From assembly GCA_046562895.1 (NCBI GenBank), contig CM102164.1:32843842-32907841 (forward strand): DNA of 64,000 nt, written 5' to 3'. The notes beneath the pieces are model-generated. The model did no database searches. It had not been told where the DNA came from and saw nothing but the letters and a program-made list of their open reading frames with translations. Position numbers and translations under genes: made by a program. Below, piece after piece: positions 1,231-63,720 of the stretch. Origin of the DNA: Trichechus inunguis. Taxonomy: Eukaryota. The stretch's first letter is position 1, and each line of letters opens with the position of its first letter.

Positions 1231-1254
1231 AATTTGATCTCACATAGATAATTC

Positions 1255-1715
1255 TTTTTTTTTTTTTTTGTACCTTAGATGAAAGTTTGCATTAAACAGC
1301 ACACATATTGCCCTATGACAATGGTTAACAACTCCATGACATGTCAACACTGTCCCTTCTCAACCTTGGGTTCCCTATCACCAGCTTTCCTGTCCCCTTC
1401 TGCCTTCTAGTCCTTGTCCATGGACTGCTGAGCCTCATCAGTCCCATTTTGTTTTATGAGGCTGTCCAATCTCCGGCTGAATGGTGAACTTTGGGAGTGA
1501 CTTCACCACGGAGCTAAAAGGGTGTCTGGGGGCCATACTCTTGGGGTTTCTTCAGTCTGTCAGGCCAATAAATCTAGTCTTTTATGAGTTATAATTTTGT
1601 TTTACATCCTTCTCCAGCTCTGTCTAGGACCCTCTATTGTGATCCCGGTCAGAGCAGTCAGTGATGGTAGCCGGGCACCTTCTAGCTGTACTGGACTCAG
1701 TCATCTGATGTGATT
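1255..1715 (-). mobile_element. Young-family L1 3'UTR fragment with poly-A, preceded by a 19-bp tag
   Basis: Poly-T 1255-1272, then about 440 bp that align along their length to 19352-19800 (the L1 3'UTR below the ORF2 stop of copy A). The tag gatctcacatagataattc lies immediately 5' of the poly-T at 1236-1254, identical to 19314-19332. Confidence 0.7.
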
Positions 1716-4127: not shown

Positions 4128-4372
4128 AAAAACGCATACTCTGAGACACTAGTGGAGTTACTTTTTTTTTTTATTGTACTTCAGGTGAAGGCTTACAGAA
4201 CAAATAGTTTCTCATGAAACAGTAGTACACATGTTGTTTTATGACATTGGTTAACAACCCTAGTGGAGTTACTTTTTGAGGGTCTCCTGCAGGTTGTTAA
4301 TGGACCTCACATTGGCTATGAGGTTATTGTTTGTTTGTTTGTTTTGATGCAGAGAGGTACAACATGCCCTAG
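4128..4372. repeat. Local about 115-bp duplicated segment (filled site), paired with the empty-site copy at 5222-5340
   Basis: aaa[c/t]gcatactctgagacactagtggagttactttttgaggg.ctcctgcag.tt..taatggacctcacattggctatgaggttattgtttgtttg(tttg)ttttgatgcagagagg is present at both loci. Only the first copy carries the L1 fragment. Confidence 0.7.
4161..4260 (-). mobile_element. 100-bp 5'-truncated L1 3' terminus with poly-A and a 12-13 bp target-site duplication
   Basis: (T)11 then attgtacttcaggtgaaggcttacagaacaaatagtttctcatgaaacagtagtacacatgttgttttatgacattggttaacaaccc. The insertion is flanked by direct repeats (c)tagtggagttac at 4148-4160 and 4261-4272. An uninterrupted copy of the host site exists at 5239-5262. 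Confidence 0.8.
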
Positions 4373-16939: not shown

Positions 16940-17455
16940 AGTTATTTCATTTCTTTAATTGCATATATACATATATATATAGTGGTGAGAATATACACAA
17001 CAAAACATTCACCAATTCAAAAGCTTCTACGTGTACAATTCGATGACATTGATTACACTCGTCACATTGCACAACCCATACCCCTATCTTTTTCCTAATT
17101 CTTCTACCACCATTAACATAAACTCAGTAGCCCCTAAGCAAAAACTTCTCATTTCCTCCTCCCTCCCTCCCACCTCTGGAAACCACTAATAAGCTTTGAT
17201 TTCTATATATTTACTTATTTCATGTAAGTGAGCTCATACAGTATTTGTACTTTTATGTTTGACTTATTTAACTCAGCATAATGTTGTCAAGGTTCGCCTA
17301 TGTTGTGGCTTGCTTGTACAAGAACGTTATTTTTCTTTTTGGCTGAATAATATTCGATTGTATACCACATTTTGTTCATCTATTCATCTGTTTATTAACA
17401 TTTATGTTGTTTCCACCTTTTGGCTATTGTGAAAGGTGCTACAATAGACATTGGT
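16940..17455 (-). mobile_element. L1 3'UTR plus ORF2 end (sense on the minus strand)
   Basis: Minus ORF 17395..17619 ends ...YIPRSRIAGPMSIVAPFTIAKRWKQHKC. The plus strand reads ataccacattttgttcatctattcatctgtt...ggctattgtgaaaggtgctacaatagacattgg (antisense of TDEWINKMW..). Confidence 0.7.
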
Positions 17456-17700
17456 CCGGCAATCCTACTCCTAGGAATGTACCTTAGAGATCTAAAAGTA
17501 GTGAAACAAACAGATATATGCACTTCTATGCTCATTGCAGCTTTATTCACAATAGCAAAAAAATGGGAACAACGGAAGTGTCCAACAGCGAATGAATGGA
17601 TAAGCAAAATGTAGTGCATATGTACAGCGGAATACTACAAAACTATAAAAAAAAATTATAACATGGATGGACCTGGAGGACGTAATGCTAAGTGAAATAA
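17455..17700 (+). mobile_element. L1 ORF2 C-terminal fragment (sense on the plus strand), head-to-head with the preceding L1 piece
   Basis: Plus ORF 17420..17614 reads ...AILLLGMYLRDLKVVKQTDICTSMLIAALFTIAKKWEQRKCPTANEWISKM, continuing to ..WMDLEDVMLSEISQA at 17650-17700. It is cut at 17701 by the RTE 3' end. Confidence 0.7.
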
Positions 17701-19290
17701 GTCAAGCACGTTGTTGTTAGGTGTCATCGGGTCAGTTCAGATTCATAGCAACCCTATGTACAACAGAACAAAACACAGCGAGGTCCTGCGCTATCCTCAC
17801 AATCGTTGCTATGTTTGAGCCCATTGTTGCAGCCACTGTGTCAATCTATCTCGTTGAGAGTCCTTCTCTTTTTTTACTGACCCTCTACTTTACCAAGCAT
17901 GATGTCTTTCTCCAGGGACTGGTCCCTCCTGATAACATGTCCAAAGTAAGTGAGATGAAGTCTTGCCATCCTTGCTTCCAATGAGCATTCTGGCTGTACT
18001 TCTTCCAAGACAGATTTAGTCATTCTTCTGCAGTCCATGGTATATTCAATATTCTTAGCCAACATCGTAATTCAAGTGCATAAATTCTTCTTCCATCTTC
18101 CTTCCTTATTCATTGTTCAGCCTTTGCACGTATATGAGGTGATGGAAAATACCATGGCTTGGGTCAGGTATTCACCTTAGTCCTCAAAGTGACATCTTTG
18201 CTTTTTAACATTTTAAAGAGATTTTTTGCAGCAGATTTGCCCAATGCAATCGCATGTTTGATTTCTTGACTGCTGCTTTCATGAGTGTTGATTGTTGATC
18301 AAAGTAAAATGAAATCCTTGACAACTTCAATCTTTTCTCTGTTTATCATGATGATGCTTATTGGTCCAGTTGAGAGGATTTTTGTTTTTTTTATGTTGAG
18401 GCTGAAGTCTTTATTCATCAGTAAGTGCTTCAAGTAATCTTTGCTTTCAGCAAGCAAGGTTGTGTCATCTGCATGAAGCAGGTCGTTAATGAGTCTTCCT
18501 CCTATCCTGATGCTGCATTCTTCTTTATATAGTCCAGCATACAGAATGAATAAGTGTGGTGAAAGGATACAACCCCGACACACACCTTTCCTGACTTTTA
18601 ACCACCCAGCATCCTCTTGTTCTGTTGGAAAGACTGCGTCTTGGTATATGTACAGGTTCCTCATGAGCACAATTAAGTGTTCTGGAATTCCCATTCTTCA
18701 CAATATTATCCATAGTTGCTATGATCCACACAGTGAATGTCCTTGCATAGTCAATAAAAGATAGGTAAACATATTTCTGGTATTCTCTGCTTTCAGCCAA
18801 GATCCATCTGACATCAGCAATGATATCCCTTGTTCCATGTCCTCTTCTGAAACTGGTTTGAATTTCTGGTAGCTCCTTATTGATGTACTGCGGCAACCAT
18901 TTTTGAATTAACTTCATCAAAATTTTATTTGCTTGTGATATTAATGATATTGTTTAATAATTTCTGCATTCTGTTGGATCACTTTTCTTTGGAATGGGCA
19001 CAAATATGGATCTCTTCCAGTAGATTGGCTAGGTAGGTGTTGCTCAAATTTCTTGGCATAGATGAGTGAGGCTTTCCAGCGTGGCATCTGTTTGTTGAAA
19101 CATTTGAATTGGTATTCCAGTAATTCCTGGAGCCTTGTTTTTTGCCAACGCCTTCAGTGCAACTTGGACTTCTTCCTTCAATACCATTGGTTCTTGATCA
19201 CGTACTATCTCCTGAAATGGTTGAACGTCAACCAATTCTTTCTGGTACAGTGACTCGGTATTCCTTCCATCTTCTTTTGTTGCATCCTGG
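17701..19290 (-). mobile_element. RTE/BovB-type LINE (RTE1-like), 3' about 1.6 kb, 5' truncated
   Basis: Begins with the RTE 3' terminus (antisense) ttgttgttaggtgtcatcgggtcagttcagattcatagcaaccctatgtacaacagaac. Minus ORFs: 18299..18694 (MGIPEHLIVLMRNLYIYQDAVF..LLHADDTTLLAESKDYLKHLLMNK..), 18525..18920 (..RGHGTRDIIADVRWILAESREYQKYVYLSFIDYARTFT..) and 19044..19290 (..KELVDVQPFQEIVRDQEPMVLKEEVQVALKALAKNKAPGITGIP..) give an RTE-clade RT with frameshifts. Confidence 0.85.
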
Positions 19291-19298
19291 TTGTTCAA

Positions 19299-22200
19299 TT
19301 TTTTTTTTTTTTTGATCTCACATAGATAATTCTTTTTTTTTTTTTTTTTTTGGTACTTAGATGAAGGTTTGCAGAACAAATAGTTTCTCATTAAACAGTT
19401 AGTACACATATTGCCCTACGACAATGGTTAACAACCCCATGACATGTCAACGCTGTCCCTTCTCAAACTTGGGTTCCTTATTATCAGGTTTCCTGTCTCT
19501 TCCTGCCTTCTAGTCCTTGTCCCTGGACTGCTATGCCTCATTAATCCTGTTTTGTTTTATGAGGCTGTCCAATCCTTGACTGAACGGTGAACTTCACTGA
19601 GCTAAAACGGTATCTGGGGGCCATACTCTCGGGGTTTCTCCAGTCTCTCAGGCCAATAAATCTGGTCTTTTTTTGTGAGTTAGAATTCTGTTCTACATCC
19701 TTTTCCAGCTCTGTCCAGGACCCTCTATTTTGATCCCAGTCAGAGCAGTCAGTGGTGGTAGCCAGGCACTGTCTAGCTGTACTGGAGTCAGTCTGGTGGA
19801 GGCCATGGTAGCTGAGGTCCATTAGTCCTTTGGACTAATCTTTTCCTTGTATCTTGTTCTCTTCTTTCTCCCTTGTTCCCAAAAGGGTGAGACCAGTGGA
19901 GTATCCTAGATGGCTGCTCATAGGCTTTTAAGACCCTGGACGCTACTCACCAAGGTAGAGTGTAGAACATTGTCTTTATAAACTGTGTTATGCCAATTGA
20001 GCTAGATGTTCCCCGAGTCCATGGTCCCCACAGCCCTCCGCCCAGAAATTCAGTCCCTCAGGGAGTTTGGAAGTGTCTGTGGAGCTTCCATGATCTTTCC
20101 TTGTACAAGTTGTGCTGGCTTCCCCAGTAATGTGTACTGTCTTACCCTTCACCAAAGTTACCACTTATCTATTTAGTTCCTCCCATCCCTCGTAACCAAC
20201 AAGATTGTTTCTTTTTGTGTGTAAACTTTTACATGAGTTATACATTAGAGGTCTCATACAATATTTGTCCTTTTGTGATTGACTTATTCCACTCAGCATA
20301 ACATCCTCCAATTTCATCCATGTTATGAGATGCTTCACAGATTCATCATTGTTCTTTATCTTTGTACAATACACCATTGTGTGTATGTACCATAGTGTGT
20401 TTATCCCTTCATCTGTTCATGGGCATCTAGATTGTTTCCATCTTTTTGCTATTATGAACAGTGCTTCAAATGAATATGGGTGTGCATATGTCTGTTAGTG
20501 TCACGACGCTTATTTCTCTTGGATATATTCCTAGGAGTGGGATTGCATTTTGTAGTGCTTTGTTTTGTGTTGCTGACGTTTTCTTGTTCCTCTTACTCTC
20601 CTGTGCTGACTTCCTTTTGTTTGTGGATTTTTTTTCATTTCTTTTGTTTTTGTACATTTTGTTTTTACTGAGACTTTGTTTTTCTTCTCTATTTTGATGA
20701 GTAGGTTTGTTAACTTTCTTTGTGGTTACCTTGAAATTTACCCTTATCTTCCTGGATTTGAACCAGTCTATTATTACTTGGTATCACTTGTCTTCCTCTC
20801 CACTAGAAGGTTCTATACCTACACCGTTTATTCCTTCTTTTATTGTTCTGATGCTGTTGTCATTTACAGATTAACCTCTCTGGTTCCATTTTGTAATTCT
20901 TTTGGTTTTGCATAGTCCTTAAGAGTTCATTTCCTAGGTTGGTATCTGGCTAGTACAATCCTGTGTCCTATATTCAGCCTGTGGTCTGATATTTTTTGTT
21001 CTCAGATCAAAAGACTTCCTTTAATAAGTCTTGTAACTTCAGTTTAGTTTTTACATAGTCCCTTAATTTCTGTTTATCTGGAAATGACCTAATTTCACCA
21101 TCATATTTGAGCCAGAGTTTTGCAGGATATATTAATCTTGGCTGGCAATTTTTTTCTTTCAAGGTTTTATATATGACATCCCATTGCCTTCTTGCCTGTA
21201 TGGTTTCTGCTGAATAATCCAAGCTTAGTCTTATTGTTTCTCCTCTGTATGTGACTTTTTTTTCTCGAGCTGCTCTCAGGATTCTCTGTCTTTGGTTTTA
21301 GTGAGTGTGATTATGATATGCCTTGGTGATTTTCTTTTGGGGTCTATCTTATATGGGGTTCATTGAGCTTCTTGGATGGTCAGCTTTTCATCTTTCATGA
21401 TATTGGGGAAGTTTTCTGTCAGCAATTCTTCAATGATCCTCTCTGTGTTTTCTGTTTTCTCCCCCTGTTCTGGAACTCCGATCACTTGTAGAGTTTTGCT
21501 TTTGATTGTATCCCACATAATTCTCAGGGTTTCTTCATTTTTCTTTGTTCTTTTTTCTGAGTTTTCCTCAAACAGAGTTGGATACAAGTGTTTGTCTTCA
21601 ATTTTGCTGATCCTATCTTCCATCATTTCAAACCTGCTCCTCAGCCCTTCTGACACTGTCCATTTCTGAAATCTTGTTTATCTTTTGGATTTCTAATTGT
21701 TGTTTTTGTATGATTTCTAGTTGTGAATTTACTGTAGCATTTTGTTTTGGTATTAATTTCTTGAATTCTTCCGTTTTTTGGTCTGTATTTTCCATGAATT
21801 TGTCTATTTTTTCCTCATTTTTGTCTGGTTTTTTTTTGCTTCAACTCTTGGATAATTCTGAATATTAGGGATTTGAATTCCCTATCAGTTAGGTCTAGTG
21901 TCTTTTCTTCTACTGTAAGGTCATCTGGTGTTTTTATTTTGGACACCTACTGGAACCATCCTGTTTTGTTTTTGTAAATGTTTTGATATTGTCTGCTGTC
22001 TTCAGGACATTCAGTGGTTATTTTCCTCGTTTATAGATTGTAGATTTGTTTCTTTTGTCCTGCTTTTTGTTTTATTTGGTTATGTCTGAGCAGTCAGACT
22101 GTGCATTCTTTGTTGTTTGCTCGTCTGTGGGCATGAAACTTTTCACCTCCTTCTCCAATGGGCAGGGTCAGTCACTCAGGTATGGTACAACAGGGCAGGT

Positions 22201-23480
22201 CCAGCTGAAGGGGAGTTGCTGGGATAGTTTTTTTGTGGTACATACCAGGGCTGACAGTGCAGACCGGGAATCAGTGCAGGGCAGGTTCCCATAGGCCGTG
22301 CCTGTGTTGCTTGGGAGTGTGATGTTCAGCACACGGTGCAGGTAGGCAGGAAGGAGGGTGTAGATTGTGATGTGTGGAGCTAAGATAGGTATGGGAAAGA
22401 TGAGAGAGATAAGAGAGGAACAGGAGCCAAAGACATACACACAAACAAAAAAGAGTGCTAAGGGAGCTTGCTACTGGAGTGGAGAGATGAGAGACAGAAA
22501 TGGGGAAAAACAAAAATGAAAAAAAAGAAAAAGGGTAAAAGAAATGAATAAATTGAGAACTTGGAAATGAAGAAAGACAAAAAGGAAATAAGAGAGAGAA
22601 GAAAACTAAACAAAGAAATGAAAAAAAAAAAACAAGAAAGAAAAAGAAAAAAGAAACACCCCCAGGGATGTCCCTGTGTGTCTGCGCAGAGTAAGGGACT
22701 AGCTTCCCAGCCACATGGTACTGCCTGGCTAGAAGGGGCTCCCAGGCTGAGAAAAGAAGAAGAAAACAAACAAATCAAAACAGAACAAATCAAAGCAAAC
22801 AAACAAAAAACCCCGGGGGTCCCACCAGCATGGTGGCATGGGGCCGGGAAGCAGTTTCACAGGCAAGCAGTGTTTTGCAGCCTTTCAGGAAGAAGCGAAG
22901 ATGGCACACGGAACCACATATTTGAGAGAAATGAGGAGGAGGTGGTGAGAGGTAAGGAAGAAATAAATCTAAAGCAGAAAAACGCAACACAAGCAGCCAA
23001 CAAATGGCACTCAGGGAGCTGGCCAGTGTGGGCGGGTGGAACCCAAGCAGCACTGGGGGGCAGCTCATGCTTCCCGGCCAATAGACTGTGGCTGCAGGAA
23101 GCAGAGGAGGCTAAATGGGGGTGAAGAAGGGTGGGGGGTAGGAAAGCCTTTATCGTGGATTATCAGATGTTCTGTCTCCTGCTGGAAGCTCCGTGAAGCT
23201 GCTTTGTCATACGTCCTGTTCACTGATTTCCAATAGGAGTCCAGATGGCAGATCCATGCTGTGGTAGCTGATAGGGGACCTCTGCATGTATCTCTCCTCG
23301 CAGTCTGTTCTCAGTCAGTTTCTTATTCCATTCGTTGCTTGGCTGAGTTCTTTATCTCTTCATTTGATGGTTAGAGTTTCAGGATTGACGTGTGACTGTT
23401 TGACTTAGTTTTTCTGATCTTTGCTGCAGAGGGACAGCGTGGTGCTTCTGACTATAGCTCCATGTTGCCCGGAAGTCCTG
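19299..23480 (-). mobile_element. L1 copy A: 5'UTR, ORF1 remnant and inter-ORF spacer fused directly to the last about 75 codons of ORF2 plus the 3'UTR and poly-A (ORF2 almost completely deleted; HAL1-like architecture)
   Basis: 3' end: poly-T 19333-19351 plus the 19-bp tag. 3'UTR 19352-20165. ORF2 end 20165..20377 (..ITWMKLEDVMLSGISQSQKDKYCMRPL..) and the YIPRSGIAF/AIPLLG region to 20528. From 20529 the sequence (attttgtagtgctttgttttgtgttgctgacgttttcttgttcc...) is collinear with 43039-43560 of copy C, which is the spacer between ORF1 and the ORF2 ATG. ORF1 pieces 21007..21222 (..NCQPRLIYPAKLWLKYDGEIRSFPDKQKLRDYVKTKLKLQDLLKEVF) and 21360..21656 (..TLQVIGVPEQGEKTENTERIIEELLTENFPNIMKDEKL..). 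5'UTR 21700-23480 matches the copy C 5'UTR (44480-46118) to its end. Confidence 0.75.
20165..20528 (-). pseudogene. L1 ORF2 C-terminal remnant retained in copy A
   Basis: ..WMKLEDVMLSGISQSQKDKYCM.. and upstream antisense ttccatctttttgctattatgaacagtgcttcaaatgaatatgggtgtgcatatgtctgtt..tattcctaggagtgggattgc (YIPRSGIA / AIPLLG motifs). Confidence 0.75.
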
Positions 23481-26400
23481 ATTCTATAAATTTTTAAATT
23501 TCATCCTTGATTTCTTCTGTTACCTAGTAGTTTTTAAGCAACATGTTGTTGAGTTTCCATGTATTTGATTTTTTTCCTTGCTGTTTTTGTTATTGATTTC
23601 ACTTTTATGGCATTATGATCAGAGAAGATGTTTTGTAATATTTTGATGTTTCGGATTCTGTTAAGGCTTGGTTTGTGGCCTAAAATGTGGTCTATTCTGA
23701 AGAATGTTCCATGCGTGTTGGAAAATAATGTATGCTTGGCTGCTTTTGGGTGGAGTTTCCTGCATATGTTTATGAGGTCGAGCTGGTTGATTGTGGCATT
23801 TAGATCTTCTATATCTTTATTGAGTTTTTTCTAGATGTTCTGTCCTTCACCAAAACTGGTGTGTTGAAGTCTCCTACTATTATTGTGGAGCTGTTTCTCT
23901 TTGCAATGCTGTTAGTTTTATGTATTTTGGAGCCCTGCCATTGGGTGTGTATATATTTATTATGGTTATGTCCCTCTTGATGTATTGAGCCTTTAATCAT
24001 TATATAGTGACCTTCCTTGTCCTTTGTGGTGGATTTTGCTTAATAGTCTATTTTGTCAGAGATTAATATTGCCACTCCTGCTCTTTTTTGGTTGTTGTTT
24101 ACTTGATATATTTTTTTCCATCCTTTGAGTTTTAGTTTGTGTCTTTGAGTCTAAGGTTGTCTCTTGTAGGCAGCATATAGATGGATCTTTTTTTTTTATC
24201 CATTCTTCCACTCTCTGTCTCTTTATTGGTGCGTTTAGTCCATTTACATTCATTGTAATTACTGATAATATGAGTTTACTGCTGTCATTTTGATCTTTTT
24301 TTTTTTTGTGGGGTTGACTGTTTCTTTGTTACACTTAATTTTTCTGTGCTGAGTTGTTTTTGTTTATTTATTTTCTTTTCATCATTTCCATTATTGTTGA
24401 TTTTGTGTCTGCTGAGTATGTTTTCATTCTTTTTTATTTTGATGGGTAGCTTCCTTTGCTAGCTAACTTTGTTAGTTTCCTTTGTGGTCACCTTAAAATT
24501 TAACCTTTATTTTTCTAAATTTAAACCAGTCTTTTATTTCTTGATATTGTCTTGACTTCCTCTCCTTATGGTAGTTCTACGACTACACTATTTATTTCAT
24601 CTTTTTTGTTTTGAAGATTCTATTGTTTATATATTGACGTCTCTGATTCCCTATTTTCAGTCTTTTAGCTTTGTTTTGTTTTTGTGAATTCCCAATATGG
24701 GTCTGTATCTGGTTGATCTGCCCTGTGTCCTAGCTTTGGATTGTTGCCTGATTTTGTTGGTTCTCTAACCATAGGTCTGTCTTTAATATTTCTTGTGATT
24801 TTGGTCTGATTTTTACAAATTCTCTTAGTTTCTGTTTATCTGAAAATGATATAATTTTGCCGTTGTATTTGAGAGACAATTTTGCTGGATATATAATTCT
24901 TGGCTGACAAATTTTTTCCTTCAAGGCTTTATATATATTATCTCATTGCTTTCTTGCCTGTATGGTTTCTGGTGAGTAGTCAGAGCTTAGTCTTATTGGT
25001 TTTGCTTTGTAGGTGACTTTTCATTTATCCTTAGTCATTGTAAGAATTCTTTCTTTGTCTTTGGTTTTGGCAAGTTTGATTATGATATGTGTTGGTGACT
25101 TTCTTTTGGGGCCTATCCTATACAGGGCTCATTGAGCTTCTTGGATAGATATCATCTCATCTTTCATGATATTAGGGAAGTTTTCTGCCAGCAAATCTTC
25201 AACAATTCTCTGTGTTTTCTGTTATCTTCCTCTGTTCTGGTAGTCTGATCACTCATATGTTTTTCTGTTGATAGCATCCCTCATAATTCTTAGGCTTTCT
25301 TCATTTTTTTCATTCTGTTTTGCTGATTTTTCCAAATTAGTGTCAAGGGATTTATCTTCAGTCTCACTGATTCTGATTTCCATTGTCTCAGTTCTGCTCT
25401 ATGACCGTCTATCGAGTTGTCTAATTCTAACATTTTCTTGTTAACCTTTTCGTTTTCTAGTTGTTATTTTTGTATAGTTTCTAGCAGCTTGTTTATTCTG
25501 TCATTTTGTTCTTGTATTGTTTTCCTGAATATTCTATTGCTGTGTGTTGCTTGGTTTGGTTTGAGTTTTGCCTGATCTCCTCCTTGATATCTTTGAGATC
25601 TCTATTAGTCTTTTGAATTCTTATTCAGGTAGTTTCATCGCCTTTTCTTCCTCTGGAAGATTTTCTGGTTCTTTATTTTGGTCACTTGCTGGAGCCATCT
25701 TGTCCTGCTTCTTTATGTGATTTGATATTGACTGTTATCCCTGGTGGTGCAGTGGTTAAGTGATACTGCTGCTAACAAAAATTTTGTGGTTAAATCCACC
25801 AGCTGCTCCTTGGAAACCCTATAGGACAGTTCTCTCATAAAACCCCAGATGGCAACGGGTTTGTTTGTTTTTGGTTATCTCCAAATCATCAATGTTATTA
25901 TATTTATTTATTTATTGTATTTTTGTTTACTGCATCCTGTTTTTTGTTTTGTTTTGATATGTCCAAGTAAGCTAGGTGTGTGTACTACTCTGGTCATTGG
26001 CATCATTGAAACTCTCACCCCCTCTCTCCAGGTGGTCAGAGCAGCTACTCTGTGTGTGAGACTGGGAGTCTCTTCACTGTTCCTGCAGGGGTGCTGAAGA
26101 TGTAGGTAGAGATTTTTAGTGAGGTGATGAATCTGTCCTACTTTTTACCTGGCCGAGAGTACGGGGGTGTTCTTCCTGGTCTTCGGCTTGGGTGTTGTGT
26201 GTGTGTTCCACTGCTTACCAGTTGTTCAGGGCATAGGTGGCAAGGTTGTTGGTTACCAAGTGTGTGGTGTGGAGACTATCACCTATAGTCCTGGGTGGGC
26301 AGAGCTATGTGGGGGTGTTTGGAGCAGGCACAGGTCTCTGGTTGCAATGGGAGAGGGGGCAATATGAAGGGCAAGGCAGGGGGCTCTTTGCGCTCCCAGG

Positions 26401-27330
26401 TGTCCAGCTGGAGGGCGTGTGACTGTCTGCTTGACTGCATAATGGGGCGGGGGGTAGTGCAGCTGGTCCTTGAGTGTCCAGTGCCGTTGGCTGGAGGGAT
26501 TGAGAGGCACCACTAATTCTCAGGCCCCTGTCATGGGTGGCTAGATGGAGTGGGTAGTCCTGCCAGCCCTCAGGCTCCTGGTGTGGGTGGGTGAGGCCCC
26601 TTCTTAGGTGGTGTTAAATGTCACAAATCTGCAGCTCCCATTTGGCTGCTGTATGTGAAAATGCGCTTCAGGTGGATGCCTCGCCCATTTTATCCTAATG
26701 AGGGTATGCGGGTATGCCATGCTGGATTAGCCTGCAAGGCCCTGGTGCTGGTAATTGGCAAGGGTGAAGGGTGCTACAAGTCTGTGGAACCCCTACACAA
26801 GTGGCTGGGTGAAGGAGTGAATGCCTCTGGTCCCAGCCACGAGTTCTTGGCTTAGGTGCTGTGGTGGTGTTGAATGCTGCGCTGGACTAGTGTTGGAGCA
26901 GGGAGGGGGATGGATGAGGAGAAGGGAGTGCTCCCTAGCCATGGAGCTCTGGTGGGGGGAAGGGTTATGTTGTACATGCAGTGGTTTGGGAACTTGCACT
27001 TAACTTTCTCAGGTCTGGTTTCCCTCCCGTTTGGTTCTGGAGGTGCCTGCAGATTCGTTGCTGCTTAGCTGCGCCAGATGGAGTGGATTTCAGCTTGAGA
27101 TATTGCTGCTTGCTTCAACCTGTGTTCACTGTGCAGATTCAACTAGCAGGACACCAGGGATCCCGTGATCCATAATTCCCTATTTCTGCTGTTTTTGAAT
27201 TGTCTCTCCTCCCACTTGTAGCTCAGTCTGATTTTTCCGCTTTGTCTTTGATGATTAAGGTCCCTAGATTGTGGTGTATATCCAATTCACTTGTTTTTTT
27301 AGGTCTTTGTTGTAAGAGGAATGACAGAAG
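23480..27330 (-). mobile_element. L1 copy B: ORF2 first about 770 bp (EN domain), inter-ORF, ORF1, and a CpG-rich monomer-type 5'UTR. 3' portion absent (it abuts the 5' end of copy A).
   Basis: Minus ORFs 24056..24253 (MNVNGLNAPIKRQRVEEWIKKKDPSICCLQETTLDSK..; ORF2 start), 23809..24000 (..[20 protein letters not shown]..; EN) and 24730..24924 (..KICQPRIIYPAKLSLKYNGKIISFSDKQKLREFVKIRPKSQEILK; ORF1 C-terminus). GC-rich region 26100-27250 shows imperfect tandem units (tcaggcccctgtcatgggtggctagatggagtgggtagtcctgccagccc / tcaggctcctggtgtgggtgggtgaggcccc). Confidence 0.75.
25738..25880 (+). mobile_element. AfroSINE (5'-truncated by about 5 nt) nested in the L1 copy B 5'UTR/ORF1 boundary
   Basis: ccctggtggtgcagtggttaagtgatactgctgctaacaaaaattttgtggttaaatccaccagctgctccttggaaaccctataggacagttctctc...gcaacgggtttg. 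Flanks gttatc / ggttatc suggest a 5-6 bp TSD. Confidence 0.8.
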
Positions 27331-27369
27331 GGTCTGACTATTCCACCGTCTTGACCCTGCCTCTTCCAT

Positions 27370-27570
27370 TTAATCTTTGACAACTTCCAATTTTCCTAGG
27401 TTCATACTTCATAAATTCCACATTCTGATTATTGATGGATGTTTGCAGCTGTTTCTTCTCATTTTCATTCATACCACATCAGCAAATGTAGGTCCCGAAA
27501 GCTTACTCTATGCATGTTATTAAAGTCGACTCTACTTGGTGGAAGCAGCACTTCCCTAGCAGGACAAACT
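27370..27570 (-). mobile_element. RTE fragment (endonuclease-domain region, antisense)
   Basis: ccaattttcctaggttcatacttcataaattccacattctgattattgatggatgtttgcagctgtttcttctcattttcattcataccacatcagcaaatgtaggtcccgaaagcttactc. I recognise this as the 5' part of RTE1-type elements, but only from memory of the consensus. The coding sense (minus) gives ..KQLQTSINNQNVEFMKYEPRKIGSCQ... Confidence 0.45.
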
Positions 27571-27579
27571 GACAGATGA

Positions 27580-28850
27580 GTGGGGAAGTCAACACATAAG
27601 GACAAATATTGTATGATCCCTCTTCTATAACAAGAAAAGAATAGACATATGTAAAGAGACCAATTTTCATTGGTGGTTCCCAGGGGATGAAGGGCGAAGT
27701 ATGCTCTAGATTGCAGTTGTTATTGTTGTTGATGGGAAAAGAGGCAATGAATGTGGATGTAGTGAGCACAGCACAACCCAAGTAAATGATGCTGCTGAGA
27801 AGCACTTATTAGAAAAGAATGCTGTATAAAAGAATTTGACATATATAAGAATGTAACAACTCCAAAAAATGAGTTTAAGATCACATAAGGATGAGTACAA
27901 GCATATATGTGTATGGGTAAGTACAGATGTATTCATATGTGAGAATGGATTGAAGTATCTGTATGTATGCATAAATACAGATATGTGTGGACAGGCACAT
28001 ATATCCATTAAAAACACAACTATAGATACTCCTCAGAGATACTCAAACAACTTCCAAGATCAGTTTTCTAAATTTGAAAACTTAGGACCATAGTCTCATG
28101 GGACAACTGAGTCAATTGGTATAATATAGCTCACAAAGTTCATGTTCTTCATCCTAGTGAGGTGAGTAGCATCTGGGGTCTTAAAAGCTTATGAGTGGCC
28201 ATCTAAGATGTAACTATTGGTCTCTTCGTCAGGAGAAAAGAGTAAAAAGGTAACCAAAATCACAGAGAAGAAACAAGTCTGCAAGACTGATAACCTACAT
28301 GAGCCATGATCTCAACTACCCTGAGACCAGAAGAACTAGGTGGTGCCCAGCTACTACCACTGACCAATCTGACCAGGGGCCCAATAGATGATCTTGGTTA
28401 GAATGGGAGAAAAAATGCAGTTAAAAACTCAGATTTTTAAAAGTGGCCAGACTAATCAGACCATCTGAGGCCAGAGAACTCCCTGAGACTATCACCCTGA
28501 GATGTTCTTTAAACCTTGAACCAAAACTATCCCCTGAGATCACCTTTTAGCAGAGTGACTCACAAAATAAAACATACTACCCGTTATATCAGTGCTCTAC
28601 TAAAAAAAATCTGTAGGAGTCCAAAAGGTCAACATTGAATCCAAAGCAAAGATGAGATGATAAGGGAGTGGGGAAACTAGAATACTCAAAATGCAACAAC
28701 CAGAACACAATTAATGAGAATATTGACAGAAGGTGACAAATATAACTAATATCTATTTTTGTGGAAATCGTCAAGTGGGAACTTAACTTGCTGGGTAAAC
28801 TTTCACCAAAAGCACAATAAAATATTATTAAAAAAAAAAAAACCGCAAGG
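27580..28850 (+). mobile_element. L1 extreme ORF2 end plus 3'UTR plus poly-A (5'-truncated insertion, sense strand)
   Basis: gacaaactgacagatgagtggggaagtcaacacataaggacaaatattgtatgatccctcttc (..KDKYCMIPL.), then about 1.2 kb of 3'UTR homologous to 54085-54885 and, in antisense, to 30395-31440. Ends in a poly-A tail at 28832-28848. Confidence 0.75.
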
Positions 28851-42800: not shown

Positions 42801-45800
42801 TATCTGAGATTAGTATTGCCACTCCTGCTCTTTTTTGGTAACTGTTTTCTTGATATATTTTTTCCATCCTTTGATTTTTAATAAATTTACCTCTTTGTTT
42901 CTAAGATGTGTCTCTTATAGACAGCATATTGATGGCTCCTGTTTTTTCAATCCATTCTGTCACTCTCCGTCTCTTTATGGGTGCATTTAAATATATTCAG
43001 TATAATTATTGATAGGTGCGAGTTTATTGCTGTCATTTTGTAGTGCTTTTTTTTGTGGTGCTAACGTTTTCTTTGTTCCTGTTAGTCTCCTGTGCTGAAT
43101 TCCTTTTGTGTGTAAATTTTTTTCATTTCTTTTTTTTGTGTATTTTGTTTTTACTGAGACTTTATGTTTTTCTTCTTTATTTTGATGAGTAGGTTTGTTA
43201 ACTGTCTTTGTGGTTACCTTGAAATTTACCCTTATCTTCCTGGGTTTGAACCAGTCTATTATTACTTGGTATAGCCTTGCCTTCCTCTCCTTTAGAAGGT
43301 TCTACACCTACACAATTTATTCCCTTTTTTTAAAAAATTGTTCTCATGTTGTTGTCATTTACAGATTAACCTCTCTGTTTCCCTGTTGTAATTCTTTTTG
43401 TTTTGGATGGTCCTTGAGAGTTCATTTCCTAGGTTGGTATCTGGCTGGTATGATCCTGCATCCTAGATGCAGCCTGTGTTCTAATGTTGTTCATTCTCAG
43501 ACTGAAGGACTCCCTTTAATAATTCTTGTAAGTTTGGTTTGGTTTTTACATAATCCCTTAATTTCTGTTTATCTGGAAATGTCCTAATTTCACCATCAGG
43601 TTTTAATGAGAGTTTTGCAGGATATATTATTCTTGGCTGGCAATATTTTTCTTTCTAAGTTTTATATATGTCATCCCATTGCCTTCTTGGCTGCATGGTT
43701 TCTGCTGAATAATCCGAGCTCAGTCTTATTGTTTCTCCTCTGTATGTAACTTTTAGTTCTCTTGAGCTGCTCTCAGTATTCTTTCTTTGTCTTTGTTTTT
43801 CGTGTGTGTGATTATGATATGCGTGGTGATTTTCTTTTGGGATCTATCCTATATGGGGTTCTTTGAGTTTTTGGGGTGGTCGGCTTTTCATCTTTCATGA
43901 TATTGGGGAAGTTTTCTGTCAGCAATTCTTCAATGATCCTCTCTGTGTTTTCTGTTTTCTCCCCCTGTTCTTGAACTCCGATCACTCTCAAATTTTTGCT
44001 TTTGGTTTTATCCCACCTAATTCTCAAGGTTTCTTCGTTTTTCTTTGGTCTTTTTTCTGATTTTTCTTCAGAGTTGTATCCAAGTACTGGTCTTCAATAT
44101 CGCTGACCCTGTCTTCTATCATATTCAAACCTGCTCCTCAGCCCTTCTATGACACTGTCCATTTCTGAAATCTAGTAGTTTGTCTTTTGGATTTCTAATT
44201 GTTGTTTTTGTATGATTTCTAGTTATGAATTTATTTTGGCATTTTGTTCTTGTATTATTTTCCTGAATTCCACTTTTTGTCTGTATTTTCCATGAATTTG
44301 TCTGCCTTTTCCATGAATTTGTCTATTTTTTCCTCATTTTTGTCTGCTTTTTGCTTCAACTCTTGGATAATTCTGAGTATTAGAGATTTGAATTCCCTAT
44401 CAGGTAGTTCTAGTGCCTTTTCTTCTACTGGAAATTCATCTGATGTTTTATTTTGGAAGGCTACTGGAACCATCCTGTCCTGTTTTTTTTTTTTTTTAAT
44501 ATGTTTTCATATTGTCTGCTGTCTTCAGGACATGCAGTAGTTATTTTCTTCATTTATTGAGTGTAGTTTTTTTTTGTCCTGCTTTTTGTTTTATTTGGTT
44601 ATATCTGATCAGGTGGGCTGTGCGTTCTTGTTTGCTTGTCTGTGGGCATGATACTTTTCACCTCCTTGTCCAACTGGCAGGACCAGTCACTCAACTGTGG
44701 TGCAGCAAGTCAGGCCCAGATGAAGGGGAGTTGCTGGGATGGATTGTTTGTGAACCAGGACTCAGTGCAGGGCAGGTTCCAGTAGGTCATGCCTGTGCTG
44801 CTCAGGAGTGTGGTATTCTGTGCATGGTGCAGTAGGCAAGAAGGGGGGGGGGAGATTGTGATGTGTGGAGCTAAGATAGGTATGGGAAAGGGGGCAGAGA
44901 GGAGAGAGAAACAGGGGCCAAAAACAAACAAACAAAAAATAGTGCTAAGGGAGCTTGATGTTGGAGTGGAGAAATGAGAACCTAGAAATGGAGAAAAACA
45001 AAAAGAAAAAGGGTAAAAGAACAATGAATAAATGTTAGAGATAAAAAAGAGAAAAAAAGCTCCCAGGGATCCCACCTGTGCAGCTGAAAAACTGGGAAGT
45101 GGCTCCCAGGCCGTGAAGTACAGCCTGGCTAGAAGGGGTAGAGGTGTCACACAGCACCAGGTATTCAGGAGACAGGAAGAAAAGGTAAGTATAGAGAGAC
45201 GAGAAACTGAGAAAGGAAGAGAGGGAAAAAGTGAAAAAGAGAGAAAAGAAAATGAAACAAACAACAACAAAACCAAAAAAAAAGGTAAAAGAAATGTTCT
45301 CAAGGATCACACTGTACACGGCTTTACAGGCTGAGGAAGTAGCTCCCCAGCAGTGCAGTACAGCTCAGCTAGAAGGGGCTCTCAATCCGAGAAAAGAAAA
45401 AGAAAACAAAGAAACAAGCAAATCAAAACAAAACAAAAACAAAAAAGAATCCCTGGGGATCCCACCAGTGTTGCAGTGCGAACTGGGAAGCAGTTACACA
45501 GAAGAGTGGTGTTTCACTGCCTTTCACGAAGAAGCAAAGGTGGCACACAGAGCCAGGTATTTGAGAGAAAGGAGGGGGAGGTGGTGAGAGTTATGGAAGA
45601 AACCAAAAGAAGCAGAGAAAAGTAACACCAGCAACCAACAAAAGGCACCCAGGCAGCCAGTCATTGTGGGTGGTGGAATCCCAGCAGCACAGGGCTGAAG
45701 CCTGTGCCTCCCAGCCAAGAGACTGTGGCCGCAGGAAGCAGAGGAGGCTAAGTGGGTGTGAAGAAGGGTGCGAGGTAGGAAGGCATATAGTGCTGGTTAC

Positions 45801-46118
45801 CAGTTGTTCTGGCTCCTGCTGGTAGTTCCGTGAAGCTACTTTCCTGTACTCGCTGTTAGCTGATCTCCGACAGGAGTCCAAGATGGTGAATCCGTGCTGT
45901 GTTAGCCAATAGGGGACCTCTGCACATATCTCTCCTGACTGTCTGTTCTCTGTCAGTTCCTTATTCCATTCTGTGCTTGGCTGAGTTCTTTATCTCTTCA
46001 TTTGATGTTTAGGGTTCCAGGATTGACTTTTGTCTCTGTTTGACTTAATTTTTTGGGTCTTTGCTGTGGAGTGATGTCATGGTGTTTCTATCTATAAGGC
46101 CACGTTGGCCAGAAGTCC
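39895..46118 (-). mobile_element. L1 copy C: ORF2 (lacking the C-terminal fifth and 3'UTR), inter-ORF, ORF1, and a full 5'UTR of the same subfamily as copy A
   Basis: Minus ORFs 40003..40260 (..[34 protein letters not shown]..), 40313..40639 (..MVVKTAWYWYNDRYIDQWNR), 40621..41121 (..[78 protein letters not shown]..; RT), 41783..42202 (..[23 protein letters not shown]), 42370..42867 (..[55 protein letters not shown]..; EN), and 43812..44027 / 44255..44473 (ORF1 RRM and coiled-coil). 5'UTR 44480-46118 with a purine-rich (plus strand) low-complexity tract 44850-45640. Confidence 0.8.
40621..41121 (-). pseudogene. L1 ORF2 reverse-transcriptase domain remnant (copy C), 166-aa open stretch
   Basis: Contains the RT motifs [17 protein letters not shown] and FVDDM (the FADD-box equivalent). 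The ORF is broken on both sides by frameshifts. Confidence 0.85.
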
Positions 46119-46861
46119 TGATCATTAGTAATTTCTGCCTCTCTTATGAACTAGATAGAATCAACTACAATAGAATCTGAAGCCCCTTCCTTGGCTTGTT
46201 ATCCAGAATCTGTCATTCATAGTAATTCTTTCAGCTGCCATCACTTATATCTTGCTGGCTGTTGTTCTTGTGAACACATTGCACTCAAAGTAGATCTATT
46301 CTTACTTCATTTGAATAAGGGGTGTGCCTCCAAGCCCTCCTCTCAAAACTTTACTATGACAGAGAGAGTGAGTCAAGTCAGGAGTGTGTGGTGCCTTCTT
46401 ATTTTACAGTGAGGAAATCCCACTCACCCAGAGATCATTCATGGGAATCCCAGTATCTGGAGACAGAGATCTAAGGTGTGTAAGACAGCAATTATGAGGA
46501 GGTGCCTATGACTCCTGAGCCTTTGGGTAACCTGCCATGTTTCCCATGGAAACATTATGGAAAAGTTTAACATGAGGTTCCATTCCTTCAGCTCAGCTCC
46601 CAAGAAGAAACTACCTAGCCTGAAGGGAGAAATTCCTTGTGGGTGAAGAGCTCTCTCTCTAAATATGTGCTGTGGATGAAGCATCAATCAACTTTAATAT
46701 ACTTAAACCTCACCACCCACCCTCAGCCTCTGTTCTCCAGACTAAACCTTACACTTTTTATATTTTTTCCTCTGGTTCAAGGGCATCCAAGAGGAAAATT
46801 CTCACAGTTTTTTAACCTTAGAGTCTTGATGGGAATATTTTAGATTAGTATAGCTCCTGAA

Positions 46862-49140
46862 AATACCTTTTTACCACACAAACAGCGACTATACATGTGG
46901 ACCTCACCAAATAGAATACACAGGAGTCAAATTGACTACGTCTGTGGAAAGAGACAATGGAAAAACTCAATATGACCAGTCAGAACAAGACCAGATGCCT
47001 ACTGTGGAACAGTCCATCAGTTGCACATGTGCAAATTCAAATTGAAGCTGAAGAAAAATAGAACAAGTCCATGAGAGCCAAAGTATGACCTTGAGTATAT
47101 CCCACCTGAATTTAGAGACCATCTCAAGAATAGATTTCATGCATTGAACACTAATGACTGAAGACCAGACGAACTGTGGAATGACATCAAGGACATCATA
47201 GATGAAGAAAGCAAGAGGTCATTAAAAAGACAGAAAAGACCAAAATAGATGTCAGAAGAGACTCTGAAGCTTGCTCTTGAACTTTGAGTAGTTAAAGTGA
47301 GTGGAAGAAATGATGAAGTAAAAGAGCTGAACAGAAGATTTAAAAGGGTGGCTCGAGAAGACAAAAGGAAGTATTATAACAACTTGTGCAAAGATCTGGA
47401 GTTAGAAAACCAAAAGGGAAGAACATGCTCGGCATTTCTCAAGCTGAAAGAACTGAAGAAAAATATTCAAGCCTCGAGTTGCAATACTGAAAGATTCTAC
47501 TGGAAAAATACTGAACAATGCAGGAAGCATCAAAACAAGATGGAAGGAATACAAAAAGTCATTGTACAAAAAAGAAGTCGTCGGCATTCAACCATTTCAG
47601 GAGGCAGCATAGGATCAGGAAGTGATGGTACTGAAGGAAGAGGTCCAAGTTGCACTGAAGGCATTGGCGAAACACAAGACTTCAGGAGCTGACGGAATAC
47701 CAACTGAGATGTTTCAACAAAAGGATGCAGTGCTGGAAGTGTTCGCAAGTCTATGCCAAGAAATTTGGTGGACTGCTACCTCGCCAACTGACTGGAAGAG
47801 ATCCATATTTATGCCTATTCCAAATAGAGGTGATCCAACCAAATGTGGAAATTATCGAAGAATATCATTAATATTACACTCAAGTAAAATTTTGCTGAAG
47901 ATCATTCAAAAGCGATTACAGCAGTACATCAACGGAGAACTGCCAGAAATTCAAACTGGATTCACAAGGGGGCGTGGAATGAGGGATATCATTGTTGGTA
48001 TCAGATGGATCCTGAGTGAAAGCAGAGAATACCAGATAGATGTTTACCTGTGTTTTTGACTATGCAAAGGCATTCGACTGTGTGGATCATAACAAATTAT
48101 GGATAACATTGCGAAGAATGGGAATTCCAGAACACTTAATCGTGCTCGTGAGGAACTTGTACATGGATCAAGAAGCAGTTATTCGAACAGAACAAGGGAA
48201 TACTGCGTGGTTTAAAGTCAGGAAAGGTGTGCATCAGGGTTGTATCTTTCACCATACTTATTCAATTTGTATGCTGAGCAAATAATCTGAGAAGCTGGAC
48301 TATATGAAGAAGAATGAGACATCAAGATTGGAAGAGGATTCATTAACAACCTGCTTTATGCAGATGACACGACCTTGCTTGCTGAAAGTGAAGAGGACTT
48401 GAAGCACTTACTGATGAAGATCAAAGACTATAGCCTCCAGTATGGATTACACCTCAACATAAAGAAAATAAAAATCCTCACAACTGATGCAATAAGCAAC
48501 ATCATGATAAACGGTGAAAATATTGAAGTTGTCAAGGACTTCATGTTACTTGGATCCACAATCAATACCCATGGAAGCAGCAGTCAAGAAATCAAATGAT
48601 GCATTGCATTGGGCAAATCTGCTGCAAAAGACCTCTTTAAAGTGTTAAAAAGGAAACATGTCACCTTGAAGACTAAGGTGCACCTGACCCAAGCCATGGT
48701 GTTTTCAATCACCTTGTATGGATGCAAAAGCTGGACAATGAATAAGGAAGACCAAAGAAGAATTGACGCTTTTGAATTATGATGTTGGCACAGAATACTG
48801 AATATACCACGGACTGCCAAAAGAACAAACAAATCTGTCTTCGAAGAAATACAGCCAGAATTCTCCTTAGAAACAAGGACGGTGAGACTACGTCTCACAT
48901 ACTTTGGGCATGTTATCAGGACGGATCAGTCCCTGGAGAAGGACATCATGCTTGGTAAAGTAGAGGGCCCACGAAAAAGAGAAAGACCTTCAACGAGATG
49001 GATTGGCACAGTGGCCGCAACAATGGGCTCAAATATAACAACAATTGTGAGGATGGTGCAGGACCAGGTATTACTTTGTTCTGTTGTGCATGGGGTCACT
49101 ATGAGTCAGAACTGACTTGATGGCACCTAACAACAACAGC
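46862..49140 (+). mobile_element. RTE/BovB-type LINE (RTE1-like), 5'-truncated in the EN domain, intact 3' terminus
   Basis: Plus ORFs 47297..47692, 47622..48059 (..ADGIPTEMFQQKDAVLEVFASLCQEIWWTATSPTDWKRSIFMPIPNRGDPTKCGNYRRISLILHSSKILLKIIQKRLQQYINGELPEIQTGFTRGRGMRDII..), 48040..48285 (..DYAKAFDCVDHNKLWITLRRMGIPEHLIVLVRNLYMDQEAVIRTEQGNTAWFKVRKGVHQGCIF..), 48375..48599 and 48882..49115. 3' end tggggtcactatgagtcagaactgacttgatggcacctaacaacaacagcaacc. Collinear with 55640-57720. Confidence 0.9.
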
Positions 49141-54885: not shown

Positions 54886-55039
54886 GCCCTCATCACATCG
54901 CTCCCTATAATTTTTCCCATTTGATTTATCTTCATAAGATTTACCATCTTCTAAAACATATTGTGGTAAATCTTAATATATATTATGGTTCCATTAGTAA
55001 TCATAATGTGGAATGTATGAAGTATGAATGAAGGAAAAT

Positions 55040-62924: not shown

Positions 62925-63720
62925 TAGATGCTGTCGAGTTGGTTCCAACTTATAACGACCCTATCAACAACAGAATGAAGCCCTGCCCTGTCCTGTGCCA
63001 TCCTCACAATCATTGTTATGCTTGAGCCCATTGTTGCAGCCACTGTGTCAATCCACCTCGTTGAAGATCTTCCTCTTTTTTGCTGACCCTGTACTTTACC
63101 AAGCATGATGTCCTTCTCCAGGGACTGATCTCTCCTGACAACATGTCTAAAGTGTGTAAAACGTAGTCTCACTACCCTTGCTTCTAAGAAGCATTCTGGT
63201 TGTACTTCTTCCAAGACAGAACTGTTCATTCTTTTGGCAGTCCATGGTATATTCAATATTCTTCACCAACACCACAATTCAAAGACATCAATTCTTCTTC
63301 GGTCTTTCTTATTCATTGTCCAGCTTTCGTATGCATGTGAGGTGATTGAAAACACTATGGCTTGGGTCAGGCACGCCTTAGTCCTCAAAGTGACATCTTT
63401 GCTTTTCAACACTTTAAAGAGGTCTTTTGATGCAGATTTGCCCAATGCAATGCATCTTTTGATTTCTTGACTGCTGCTTCCATGAGTGTTGATTGTGGAT
63501 CCAAGTAAAATGAAATCCTTGACAACTTCAATCTTTTCTGCATTTATCGTGATGTTGCTTATTGGTCCAGGTGTGAGGATTTTTGTTTTCTTTATGTTGA
63601 GGTATAATCCACGTTGAAGGCTGTGGTCTTTGATTTTCATCAGTAAGTGCTTCAAGTCCTCTTCACTTTCAGCAAGCTAGGTTGTGTCATCTGCATAACG
63701 TAGGTTGTTAATGAGTCTTT
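62925..63720 (-). mobile_element. RTE/BovB-type LINE 3' fragment (about 0.8 kb)
   Basis: Starts with the antisense 3' terminus tgttgttgttagatgctgtcgagttggttccaacttataacgaccctatcaacaacagaatg. Minus ORFs 62924..63256 (..RLRFTHFRHVVRRDQSLEKDIMLGKVQGQQKRGRSSTRWIDTVAATMGSSITMIVRMAQDRAGLHSVV..) and 63263..63655 (MKHLLMKIKDHSLQRGLYLNIKKTKILTPGPISNITINAEKIEVVKDFILLGSTINTHGSSSQEIKRCIALGKSASKDLFKVLKSKDVTLRTKACLTQAIVFSITSHAYESWTMNKKDRRRIDVFELWCW). Confidence 0.9.

Follow-up and report, generated by a model that had tools for sequence, protein, structure and literature searches.

An ORF2-less LINE-1 copy within a nest of retrotransposons in Trichechus inunguis: half-L1 or deletion scar?

HAL1 (half-L1) elements are described, in passages of PMC5753468, PMC5322556 and PMC5786205 that draw on Smit (1999) and Bao and Jurka (2010), as non-autonomous L1 derivatives, and a passage of the first, citing Bao and Jurka (2010), gives them a repeated origin in mammals. 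Elephants are reported to carry unusually many full-length L1s (PMC5322556). In a 64-kb stretch of DNA from Trichechus inunguis, referred to here as the window, an L1 on the minus strand (23478-19299; element A) has a 5'UTR, an ORF1 and a polyadenylated 3' end, and is short of nearly all of ORF2. The locus raises the question whether A moved as an ORF2-less unit, as a half-L1 would, or is what was left of ordinary L1 sequence after a deletion. As it stands, A is an ordinary, decayed and dead LINE-1 fossil in nested retrotransposons; what can be discussed is how it came to look like one ORF2-less element.

Architecture of the element

Read on the minus strand, A runs from an L1 5'UTR through an ORF1 remnant and a 458-nt spacer to the ORF2 ATG, and continues with the last ~103 ORF2 codons, a 3'UTR and a tagged poly(A). 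The overall architecture proposed in a preliminary description of this DNA, with its junction and its parts, was found in place, and several of its boundaries moved. The 5'UTR (22011..23478) starts with GGACTTCCGGGCAACATGG, and its terminus is that of the full-length copy C (46118), the two copies having the same starting nucleotide, GGACTTC. The 5' end of A had been put at 23480; it lies at 23478, and the ATCA at 23482-23479 consists of bases of the ORF2 of an older L1, B, outside A. Positions 20546-22553 are 84% identical to 43034-45033 of C, and 22558-23482 align with 45205-46122 of the same copy; by segment, identity to C is 89.6% in ORF1, 88.8% in the spacer and 78.8% in the 5'UTR.

The ORF1 remnant (21007..22010) retains the coiled coil, RRM and CTD regions. 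Alignment with L001, which is related to the 5' part of A and has an open ORF1, puts the start of the remnant at 22010 and not at 21660 as before; the frame is broken, as had been claimed, by four frameshifts and two in-frame stops, one of them a TGA at codon 3. The repaired ORF1 matches the Pfam families Transposase_22 (PF02994, 4e-18) and Tnp_22_dsRBD (PF17490, 1e-22), and its best protein matches are elephant and manatee L1 ORF1. The homology of 5'UTR, ORF1 and spacer, the 5' terminus and the RRM and CTD domains of ORF1p identify A as a LINE-1 of the afrotherian lineage. The spacer (20549..21006) has a ~456-nt counterpart between the intact ORF1 and ORF2 of L002, an external L1, and is homologous to this and to the spacers of copies B, C and D; the possibility raised beforehand, that it is a diverged segment of ORF2, can be set aside in favour of genuine inter-ORF sequence.

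What is left of ORF2 is the start codon (20546..20548) and a C-terminal remnant (20238..20545), interrupted by stops and a frameshift, which extends from AIPLLGIYP to where the ancestral stop lay and is the equivalent of human ORF2p 1173-1275. The retained piece amounts to ~103 codons, not the ~75 first estimated, and there is no trace in A of the EN and RT domains. The 3'UTR that follows (19352..20237) belongs to the same L1 family, of which further end copies lie at 1270-1702, 889-1022 and 4162-4260 and an older version in D (54084-54880); 3' fragments of the family of A are frequent, with four in 64 kb. Behind the 3'UTR come a first A-run of 19 nt (19333..19351), with loss of the AATAAA that untagged copies keep here, the tag GAATTATCTATGTGAGATC (19314..19332) and a terminal A15 (19299..19313), which runs into the RTE sequence AAAATTGAAC.

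The tag has a direct counterpart in the window. A second, 5'-truncated copy (1236..1702, minus strand), 87% identical to the 3' part of A, carries the tag at 1236-1254 with 19/19 positions identical, so that in each of the two an internal A-run is followed by 19 nt foreign to the L1 family, and neither retains AATAAA. Beyond the tag their sequences diverge, and that of the second copy runs on into an older L1 3'UTR. Identical extra sequence in independent copies is what is expected of an L1 3'-transduction lineage; a diverged TSD was considered as the source of the tag and rejected, because the second copy bears the same tag. The 3'-transduction-like tag of the preliminary description is thus real, while the further step, that the element was retrotransposed in its ORF2-less form, does not follow from it: the tag indicates only that the 3' part came from a read-through source. 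The second tagged copy ends short of the junction and has no bearing on the half-L1 question.

The junction and the flanks

The junction, which is observed directly, falls between G20546 and C20545, immediately after the ORF2 ATG and not 45 bp upstream of it, as had been thought. In C, B, D and the intact L002, ORF2 starts with CAAAATGACAGCA, that is MTA(V/L)N; the earlier misplacement of the start goes back to the internal Met of ITMNVNGL. Against the parent sequences the microhomology is 1 nt (G) and not the 3 bp (tgc) previously proposed. The right-hand sequence does begin with the AIPLLG codons near the ORF2 end (AIPLLGIYP), and both human ORF2p (residues 1173-1268 of 1275, E=1e-6) and the ends of ORF2 in copies F and H can be aligned with it. 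From its ATG, ORF2 of A now reads MQSHS followed by a stop, in a frame different from that of the C-terminal remnant, and the position of the breakpoint exactly behind the ATG appears to be a coincidence.

The 64-kb window contains a single occurrence of a 23-mer spanning the junction, where none would be expected by chance even with three mismatches. The 23-mer has no match in a microbial genome contig collection without mammalian genomes, and a gapped junction pattern in which the in-frame form ATGACAGCAATCCC was also allowed has none in microbial metagenome contigs, likewise without mammalian genomes; with both collections microbial, these two negatives carry hardly any information. The junction-spanning peptide has no relative among 5.8 billion proteins, and an exact look-up of two window ORFs in protein records returned nothing. 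Neither the L001 ORF1 in metagenome and viral contigs nor the conserved spacer pattern in genome contigs gave a match, these collections too being without mammalian genomes.

On its 5' side A is bordered by B (23479..27360, minus strand), an older L1 with 5'UTR, ORF1, spacer and ORF2 to nt ~820, which is cut off at the start of A and carries a TT|AAAAATTTATAGAATCA site directly upstream of the 5' end of A. The 5' end of A thus lies within the ORF2 of B, 17 nt past a perfect TT|AAAA nick site, with a chance frequency of 2% of ORF2 positions. Since A begins at the family terminus and 17 nt after this exact motif, its 5' end probably arrived by normal TPRT into B, and such an insertion should be followed by its own 3' end and a TSD, and then by the remaining ORF2 of B. 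Instead, the poly(A) of A is followed by the interior of the RTE in which B lies. The 3' 1.6 kb of this RTE (17710..19305, minus strand) are directly downstream of the poly(A), its 5' end (27361..27580, minus strand) is upstream of B, and the two pieces (27580-27361 and 19305-17710) constitute one insertion in an old plus-strand L1, H (17452-17711 and 27586-27960), with a ~12-nt TSD flanking the whole RTE block.

The two flanks of A are therefore contiguous in no ancestor, one being B ORF2 nt ~820 and the other an internal RTE position, and the window lacks both the remainder of B past ORF2 nt ~820 (~4 kb) and ~1.2 kb of RTE, a loss of ~5 kb of host sequence. A has no TSD, the best candidate being equalled by 1624 of 5000 shuffles, and the TSD tests on A, on D and on the composite of B and A gave nothing significant. 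Two other readings of the nest were examined and rejected. The 3' part of A is not the tail of B, because it is 71.6% identical to the 3'UTR of D (the 5' parts of A and D are 73.2% identical), versus 84% between B and D. Nor are B and A one chimeric insertion into the RTE, made by a template switch from A RNA to B RNA, as no RTE sequence or TSD joins the 5' flank of B to the 3' flank of A; nick-site motifs upstream of the 5' ends of both B and A also count against such a chimera. Other L1s of the window are short of ORF2 3' sequence too: B and C are cut in ORF2, and the neighbouring D leaps from ORF2 nt ~2100 to the 3'UTR, an internal loss different from that of A.

Origin of the ORF2 gap

The ORF2 gap of A is best explained, with moderate confidence, by a one-time genomic deletion of ~10 kb between non-homologous sites, which joined two L1s of one family, the 5' third of the first to the 3' end of the second. 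A full-length RTE would first have inserted into the old plus-strand L1, leaving its TSD, and B would then have landed near the 5' end of the RTE. A full-length L1 of the A/C family would have entered the ORF2 of B at TT|AAAAATTTATAGAATCA by ordinary target-primed reverse transcription, and a second L1 of that family, from a read-through source adding the tag GAATTATCTATGTGAGATC, would have inserted at an A-rich site ~1.2 kb further along the RTE. A single deletion with 1 nt of microhomology, from just past the first ORF2 ATG to codon ~1173 of the second ORF2, would finally have removed ORF2, the 3' end and TSD of the first element, the remainder of B together with 1.2 kb of RTE, so that what is left resembles one ORF2-less L1. 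The order of events we infer from the junctions in the nest, and that one deletion rather than two accounts for all the losses we infer by rough parsimony. Of the one clean internal deletion of ~3.5 kb in the preliminary description, the absence of ORF2 stands, and "one clean" becomes doubtful, given that the flanks are non-contiguous, ~5 kb of host sequence is gone and the larger fusion of two L1s takes one step.

The divergence of the two parts of A counts against a fusion: in ORF1 and spacer, identity between the 5' part and C is ~89%, and the 3' part matches the tagged copy at 87%, a likeness in divergence that a single element would show as well. Such an element, though we think it rather doubtful, would be a single L1 insertion in the ORF2 of B that lost its own ORF2 privately, either by an RT template jump at insertion or by a later 3.5-kb end-joining deletion. 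A second, independent deletion would then have taken out ~5 kb between the poly(A)/3' TSD of A and the A-rich site in the RTE. Both family termini are there, the 5' end as in C and the tagged poly(A) as in copy 1236-1702, and D may be a further instance of internal loss. An AAAAATT is common to the expected TSD start, at the poly(A), and to the RTE site, and as microhomology could have steered or mediated the second deletion. The difficulty is that two independent multi-kb deletions are required, one with a breakpoint that must hit the ~20-40 nt of poly(A)/TSD, as no B sequence is left, and that the unity of A is unproven when it has no TSD.

That A belongs to an amplifying HAL1-like family of non-autonomous elements, with ORF1 only and ORF2p supplied in trans, retrotransposed already ORF2-less from a tag-bearing master, is improbable. 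Its layout of 5'UTR, ORF1, 3'UTR and poly(A) without EN/RT agrees with the half-L1 descriptions cited above (PMC5753468, PMC5322556, PMC5786205), and the repeated HAL1 origins mentioned in the passage of PMC5753468 would favour this reading, as would the tagged 3' lineage, which gave at least two copies in 64 kb, and the open ORF1 of L001. The half-L1 label of the preliminary description holds for this layout and is unsupported as a functional reading. ORF1 is present as a dead pseudogene only, and the retained ATG and the remnant are in different frames; the junction was seen once only in the 64-kb window and in collections without mammalian genomes; a poly(A) is present without a TSD, between the ORF2 of B and an internal RTE position, so that transfer as a unit is not indicated, and the additional flank deletion would still be required. 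Furthermore, the 5' part, 89% identical to C in ORF1 and spacer, places A among the ordinary L1s of the C family, which bear ORF2. One copy is too few to define a consensus, whether distinct from that of the contemporary autonomous L1 or not. Within the window and these collections, membership of A in a HAL1 family is unsupported. The more specific version, an undescribed afrotherian (paenungulate) HAL1-like family in which the ORF2 start codon is followed at once by the last ~103 codons, perhaps originally in frame via a CAGCAAT repeat at both breakpoints, and which spread from a read-through master with the GAATTATCTATGTGAGATC tag, has a slim chance of being correct.

An assembly misjoin of two L1 copies is very unlikely: the region is extremely dense in L1, with many similar copies, but repeat-induced misjoins fall at homologous positions, the two sides of the junction are non-homologous L1 parts with 1 nt in common, and the window has no Ns, so that the assembly gap foreseen as a refutation is not there. 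Splicing of ORF2 out of the L1 RNA before retrotransposition (SpIRE-like) is rejected as next to impossible, since GT...AG (or GC/AT-AC) boundaries are lacking: the right-hand parent offers a possible acceptor (CCAG|CAAT), but the left-hand parent is ATG|ACAGCA in C, B, D and L002, with no GT, GC or AT donor at any position within the 1-nt ambiguity.

Comparison with known systems

Element A is of little consequence as it stands, since deleted and fused L1 fossils are commonplace where mammalian DNA is dense in L1. In practice, a single-copy ORF2-less L1 is not to be taken as a half-L1 before its flanks have been checked to be contiguous and duplicated; here they are neither, and the deletion that took ORF2 can plausibly account for the missing host sequence as well. 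If further genomic copies of the junction were to exist, A would represent one more independent half-L1 origin, in a lineage, that of elephants, for which the abundance of full-length L1s is reported to be unusual (PMC5322556), of moderate interest and to transposon specialists only.

Like HAL1s, A has a 5'UTR, an ORF1 homologue, an L1-type 3' end and a poly(A), and is without EN/RT domains. By contrast, HAL1s are multi-copy, TSD-flanked families encoding ORF1p, whereas A is one copy with no TSD, a broken ORF1 and discontiguous flanks, and is in other respects like any member of an L1 subfamily that bears ORF2. L1 3' transduction reportedly results from read-through of the weak L1 poly(A) signal. 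A and copy 1236-1702 resemble its products in the common 19 nt behind an internal A-run and in the loss of AATAAA from both, and differ in that the tag passes into an older L1 3'UTR in copy 1236-1702 and that the source locus of the tag is only putative. L1 insertions are also said to cause deletions of target sequence; A is similar in having no TSD and flanks that were apart in the ancestral sequence, and is different in the exact TT|AAAA 17 nt upstream of its 5' end, which favours normal TPRT into B over a random upstream join as the origin of the 5' junction.

Rearranged and internally deleted L1 fossils, including those made by non-homologous deletions between neighbouring L1s, are known from mammalian repeat landscapes. 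A differs from these in no notable respect and shares with them a non-homologous junction with 1 nt of microhomology, which joins two L1 positions of the same orientation and goes together with the absence of adjacent host sequence.

Structure of the ORF2-deleted L1 copy

Element A, an L1 copy on the minus strand (23478-19299) that lacks nearly all of ORF2, matches its relative C, a copy with a full-length 5' end, in two blocks of the minus-strand alignment, 20546-22553 against 43034-45033 at 84% identity and 22558-23482 against 45205-46122. Since A and C start at the same nucleotide (GGACTTC), the family 5' end is complete in A, at 23478. A pyrimidine-rich, low-complexity stretch of about 500 nt in the 5'UTR (22430-22960, minus strand) is the chief cause of the length difference between A and C, the latter having a 132-nt indel there. 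ORF1 runs on the minus strand from 22010 to a stop at 21007; its start, placed at 21660 in the preliminary description, is corrected by reference to the external contig L001, whose open ORF1 was aligned with it. ORF1 contains the L1 RRM and CTD domains, is damaged by four frameshifts and two in-frame stops and, once repaired, has its best named matches among L1 ORF1 proteins from Elephas, Loxodonta and Trichechus, which points to an afrotherian and most probably paenungulate source of the DNA. L001 (GCA_024054415.1, contig JAMXMA010000123.1, 1149 bp), from a "Pseudomonas sp. MOB-449" assembly and 85.8% identical to the 5'UTR/ORF1 of A, is contamination by afrotherian host DNA and is recorded as coding for a bacterial hypothetical protein. 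Complete L1 ORF1 domains also occur in RefSeq proteins of elephant and manatee that bear the name NUP42 isoform, as well as in a GNB1L-like isoform (P0002, P0004, P0005); the NUP42-L1 exon in Afrotheria was previously described (PMC12129022).

The segment at 21006-20549 (458 nt, minus strand) is 88.8% identical to C and has a 456-nt equivalent between the intact ORF1 and ORF2 of a second external contig, L002, which bears out the earlier assignment of about 20529-21000 to inter-ORF spacer, and not to diverged ORF2, for 21006-20549. The spacer of this L1 lineage is unusually long (about 456-460 nt) and conserved (20549-21006, 43037-43500, 24293-24760 and 50990-51450; 1479-1934 in L002), and in L002 it holds an 88-codon ORF whose TGA overlaps the ORF2 ATG (ATGA) in a stop-start arrangement.

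The junction in A reads ...GCACTACAAAATG|CAATCCCACTCCTAGG. Because L002 and the L1 copies C, B and D of the window all carry CAAAATGACAGCA, the ORF2 start (M-T-A-(V/L)-N), the break lies directly after the ORF2 ATG (20548-20546) and not about 45 bp upstream of it, as had been proposed; the retained ATG translates as MQSHS*. The right side, AIPLLGIYP, corresponds in alignments to residues 1173-1268 of human ORF2p and to the end of ORF2 in two further L1 copies, F and H, and about 1171 codons (3.5 kb) of ORF2 are missing. With C/B/D/L002 and F/H as parents, the microhomology amounts to 1 nt instead of the 3 bp first suggested. Both parents also contain a 7-nt similarity, CAGCAAT, through which a join would yield in-frame ATGACAGCAATCCC, with 4 of its bases missing in A. 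An L1 architecture lacking ORF2 is confirmed at this place, with four corrections of detail.

The 3' end and the nested LINEs

The 3'UTR of A (20237-19352, minus strand) is of the same family as the 3' fragments at 1270-1702, 889-1022 and 4162-4260. A and the copy at 1236-1702 have in common an internal A-run, the loss of the AATAAA kept by other copies, and an identical 19-nt tag, GAATTATCTATGTGAGATC (19314-19332 and 1236-1254, minus strand), beyond which the two sequences diverge. As the second copy carries the same 19 nt, the tag is ruled out as a target-site duplication (TSD); it points to a read-through (3'-transducing) lineage of source elements, to which at least two copies within 64 kb can be traced, in keeping with the 3'-transduction-like character first noticed. 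In the copy at 1236-1702, the tag continues into about 190 nt of older-type L1 3'UTR (1045-1235).

The window has no gaps, at the junction as elsewhere, and is dense in LINE fragments. Upstream, the 5' end of A adjoins ORF2 nt ~820 of the older L1 B (27360-23479, minus strand). Directly downstream of the A15 of A, an RTE-type LINE runs from an internal position onward (19305-17710, minus strand), and the part of this RTE that encodes its N terminus lies upstream of the B 5' end (27580-27361, minus strand); its reverse-transcriptase match is weak (24.7 vs 29.6 bits, under the Pfam curated cut-off). The whole RTE block (17710-27580, minus strand) is inserted in the ORF2 end of the old L1 H (17452-17711 and 27586-27960, plus strand) and is bracketed by a duplication of about 12 nt (AAGTCAAsCAC, 17700-17711 and 27586-27597), so that a single RTE of full length stood here originally, which L1s B and A entered at a later time. 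An internal stretch of the RTE (about 1.2 kb) and all of B past ORF2 nt ~820 (about 4 kb) are absent everywhere in the window, and no TSD was found around A. Elsewhere the window contains three more RTE copies (46858-49137, 54990-57736 and 62913-63719).

Origin of the deletion

An exact TT|AAAA nick site, a motif found at a TSD-compatible distance at 2% of ORF2 positions, lies 17 nt upstream of the first base of A. It indicates that the element to which the A 5' end belonged inserted into B through ordinary target-primed reverse transcription, and that this element's own 3' end, its TSD and the remainder of B must originally have lain behind it. On parsimony, we infer rather than demonstrate, with about even confidence, that one deletion fused two L1s: another L1 from the family of the first, derived from the tagged lineage, would have been located about 1.2 kb further along the RTE, and a single non-homologous deletion of about 10 kb would have run from the ORF2 ATG of the first element to ORF2 codon ~1173 of the second. 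This combines one rare event with a very common one, as judged from the four 3' fragments of A-family L1s in the window. A less probable alternative, which likewise fits the present sequence, takes A as a single element whose private loss of ORF2, through a reverse-transcriptase template jump or a later deletion, was followed by a second deletion of about 5 kb that joined its poly(A)/TSD to an A-rich RTE site, perhaps through the shared AAAAATT; it requires two multi-kb deletions, with one breakpoint hitting a 20-40-nt target.

A single chimeric insertion of B and A is less likely, as is an insertion-mediated target deletion; the 3' part of A as the tail of B is excluded by the identities of 71.6% between the 3' parts of A and D and 73.2% between their 5' parts, vs 84% between B and D (B being only about 71-75% identical to A and C). 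Splicing, for which the junction offers no donor, and misassembly are also less likely. The best explanation is a one-off deletion scar in a nest of L1s that lies inside an RTE, which itself lies inside an older L1.

Comparison with half-L1 elements

Each of the four L1s whose 5' ends lie in the window has lost 3' sequence of ORF2. The internal loss in D (49355-54880, plus strand) differs from that in A: a full 5' end is followed by ORF1 and by ORF2 to nt ~2100, where the sequence passes into the 3'UTR (junction 54084/54085, about 1.9 kb missing), and D shows no clear TSD. ORF2 breaks off at nt ~820 in B and near nt ~3150 (at 39878) in C, the 3' parts of both being absent. ORF2 loss is thus commonplace here and a special family is not needed. 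Four L1 5' ends in 64 kb agree with the exceptional number of full-length L1s, 17,445, reported in elephant (PMC5322556).

Half-L1s (HAL1) are described as ORF1-only, non-autonomous L1 derivatives with poly(A) tails and TSDs, many copies and several independent origins (PMC5753468, PMC5322556, PMC5786205, PMC4859970). What would decide for such a family is the presence of one and the same junction in several dispersed copies; counted within the 64-kb window, a 23-mer across the junction of A occurs once (0 expected by chance even with three mismatches). Membership of A in an undescribed half-L1 family of Afrotheria is considered very improbable. The HAL1-like label of the preliminary description is valid in a purely descriptive sense: A has the layout of HAL1, but it has no TSD, its ORF1 is dead, and in other respects it is a typical copy of the A/C subfamily, which bears ORF2.
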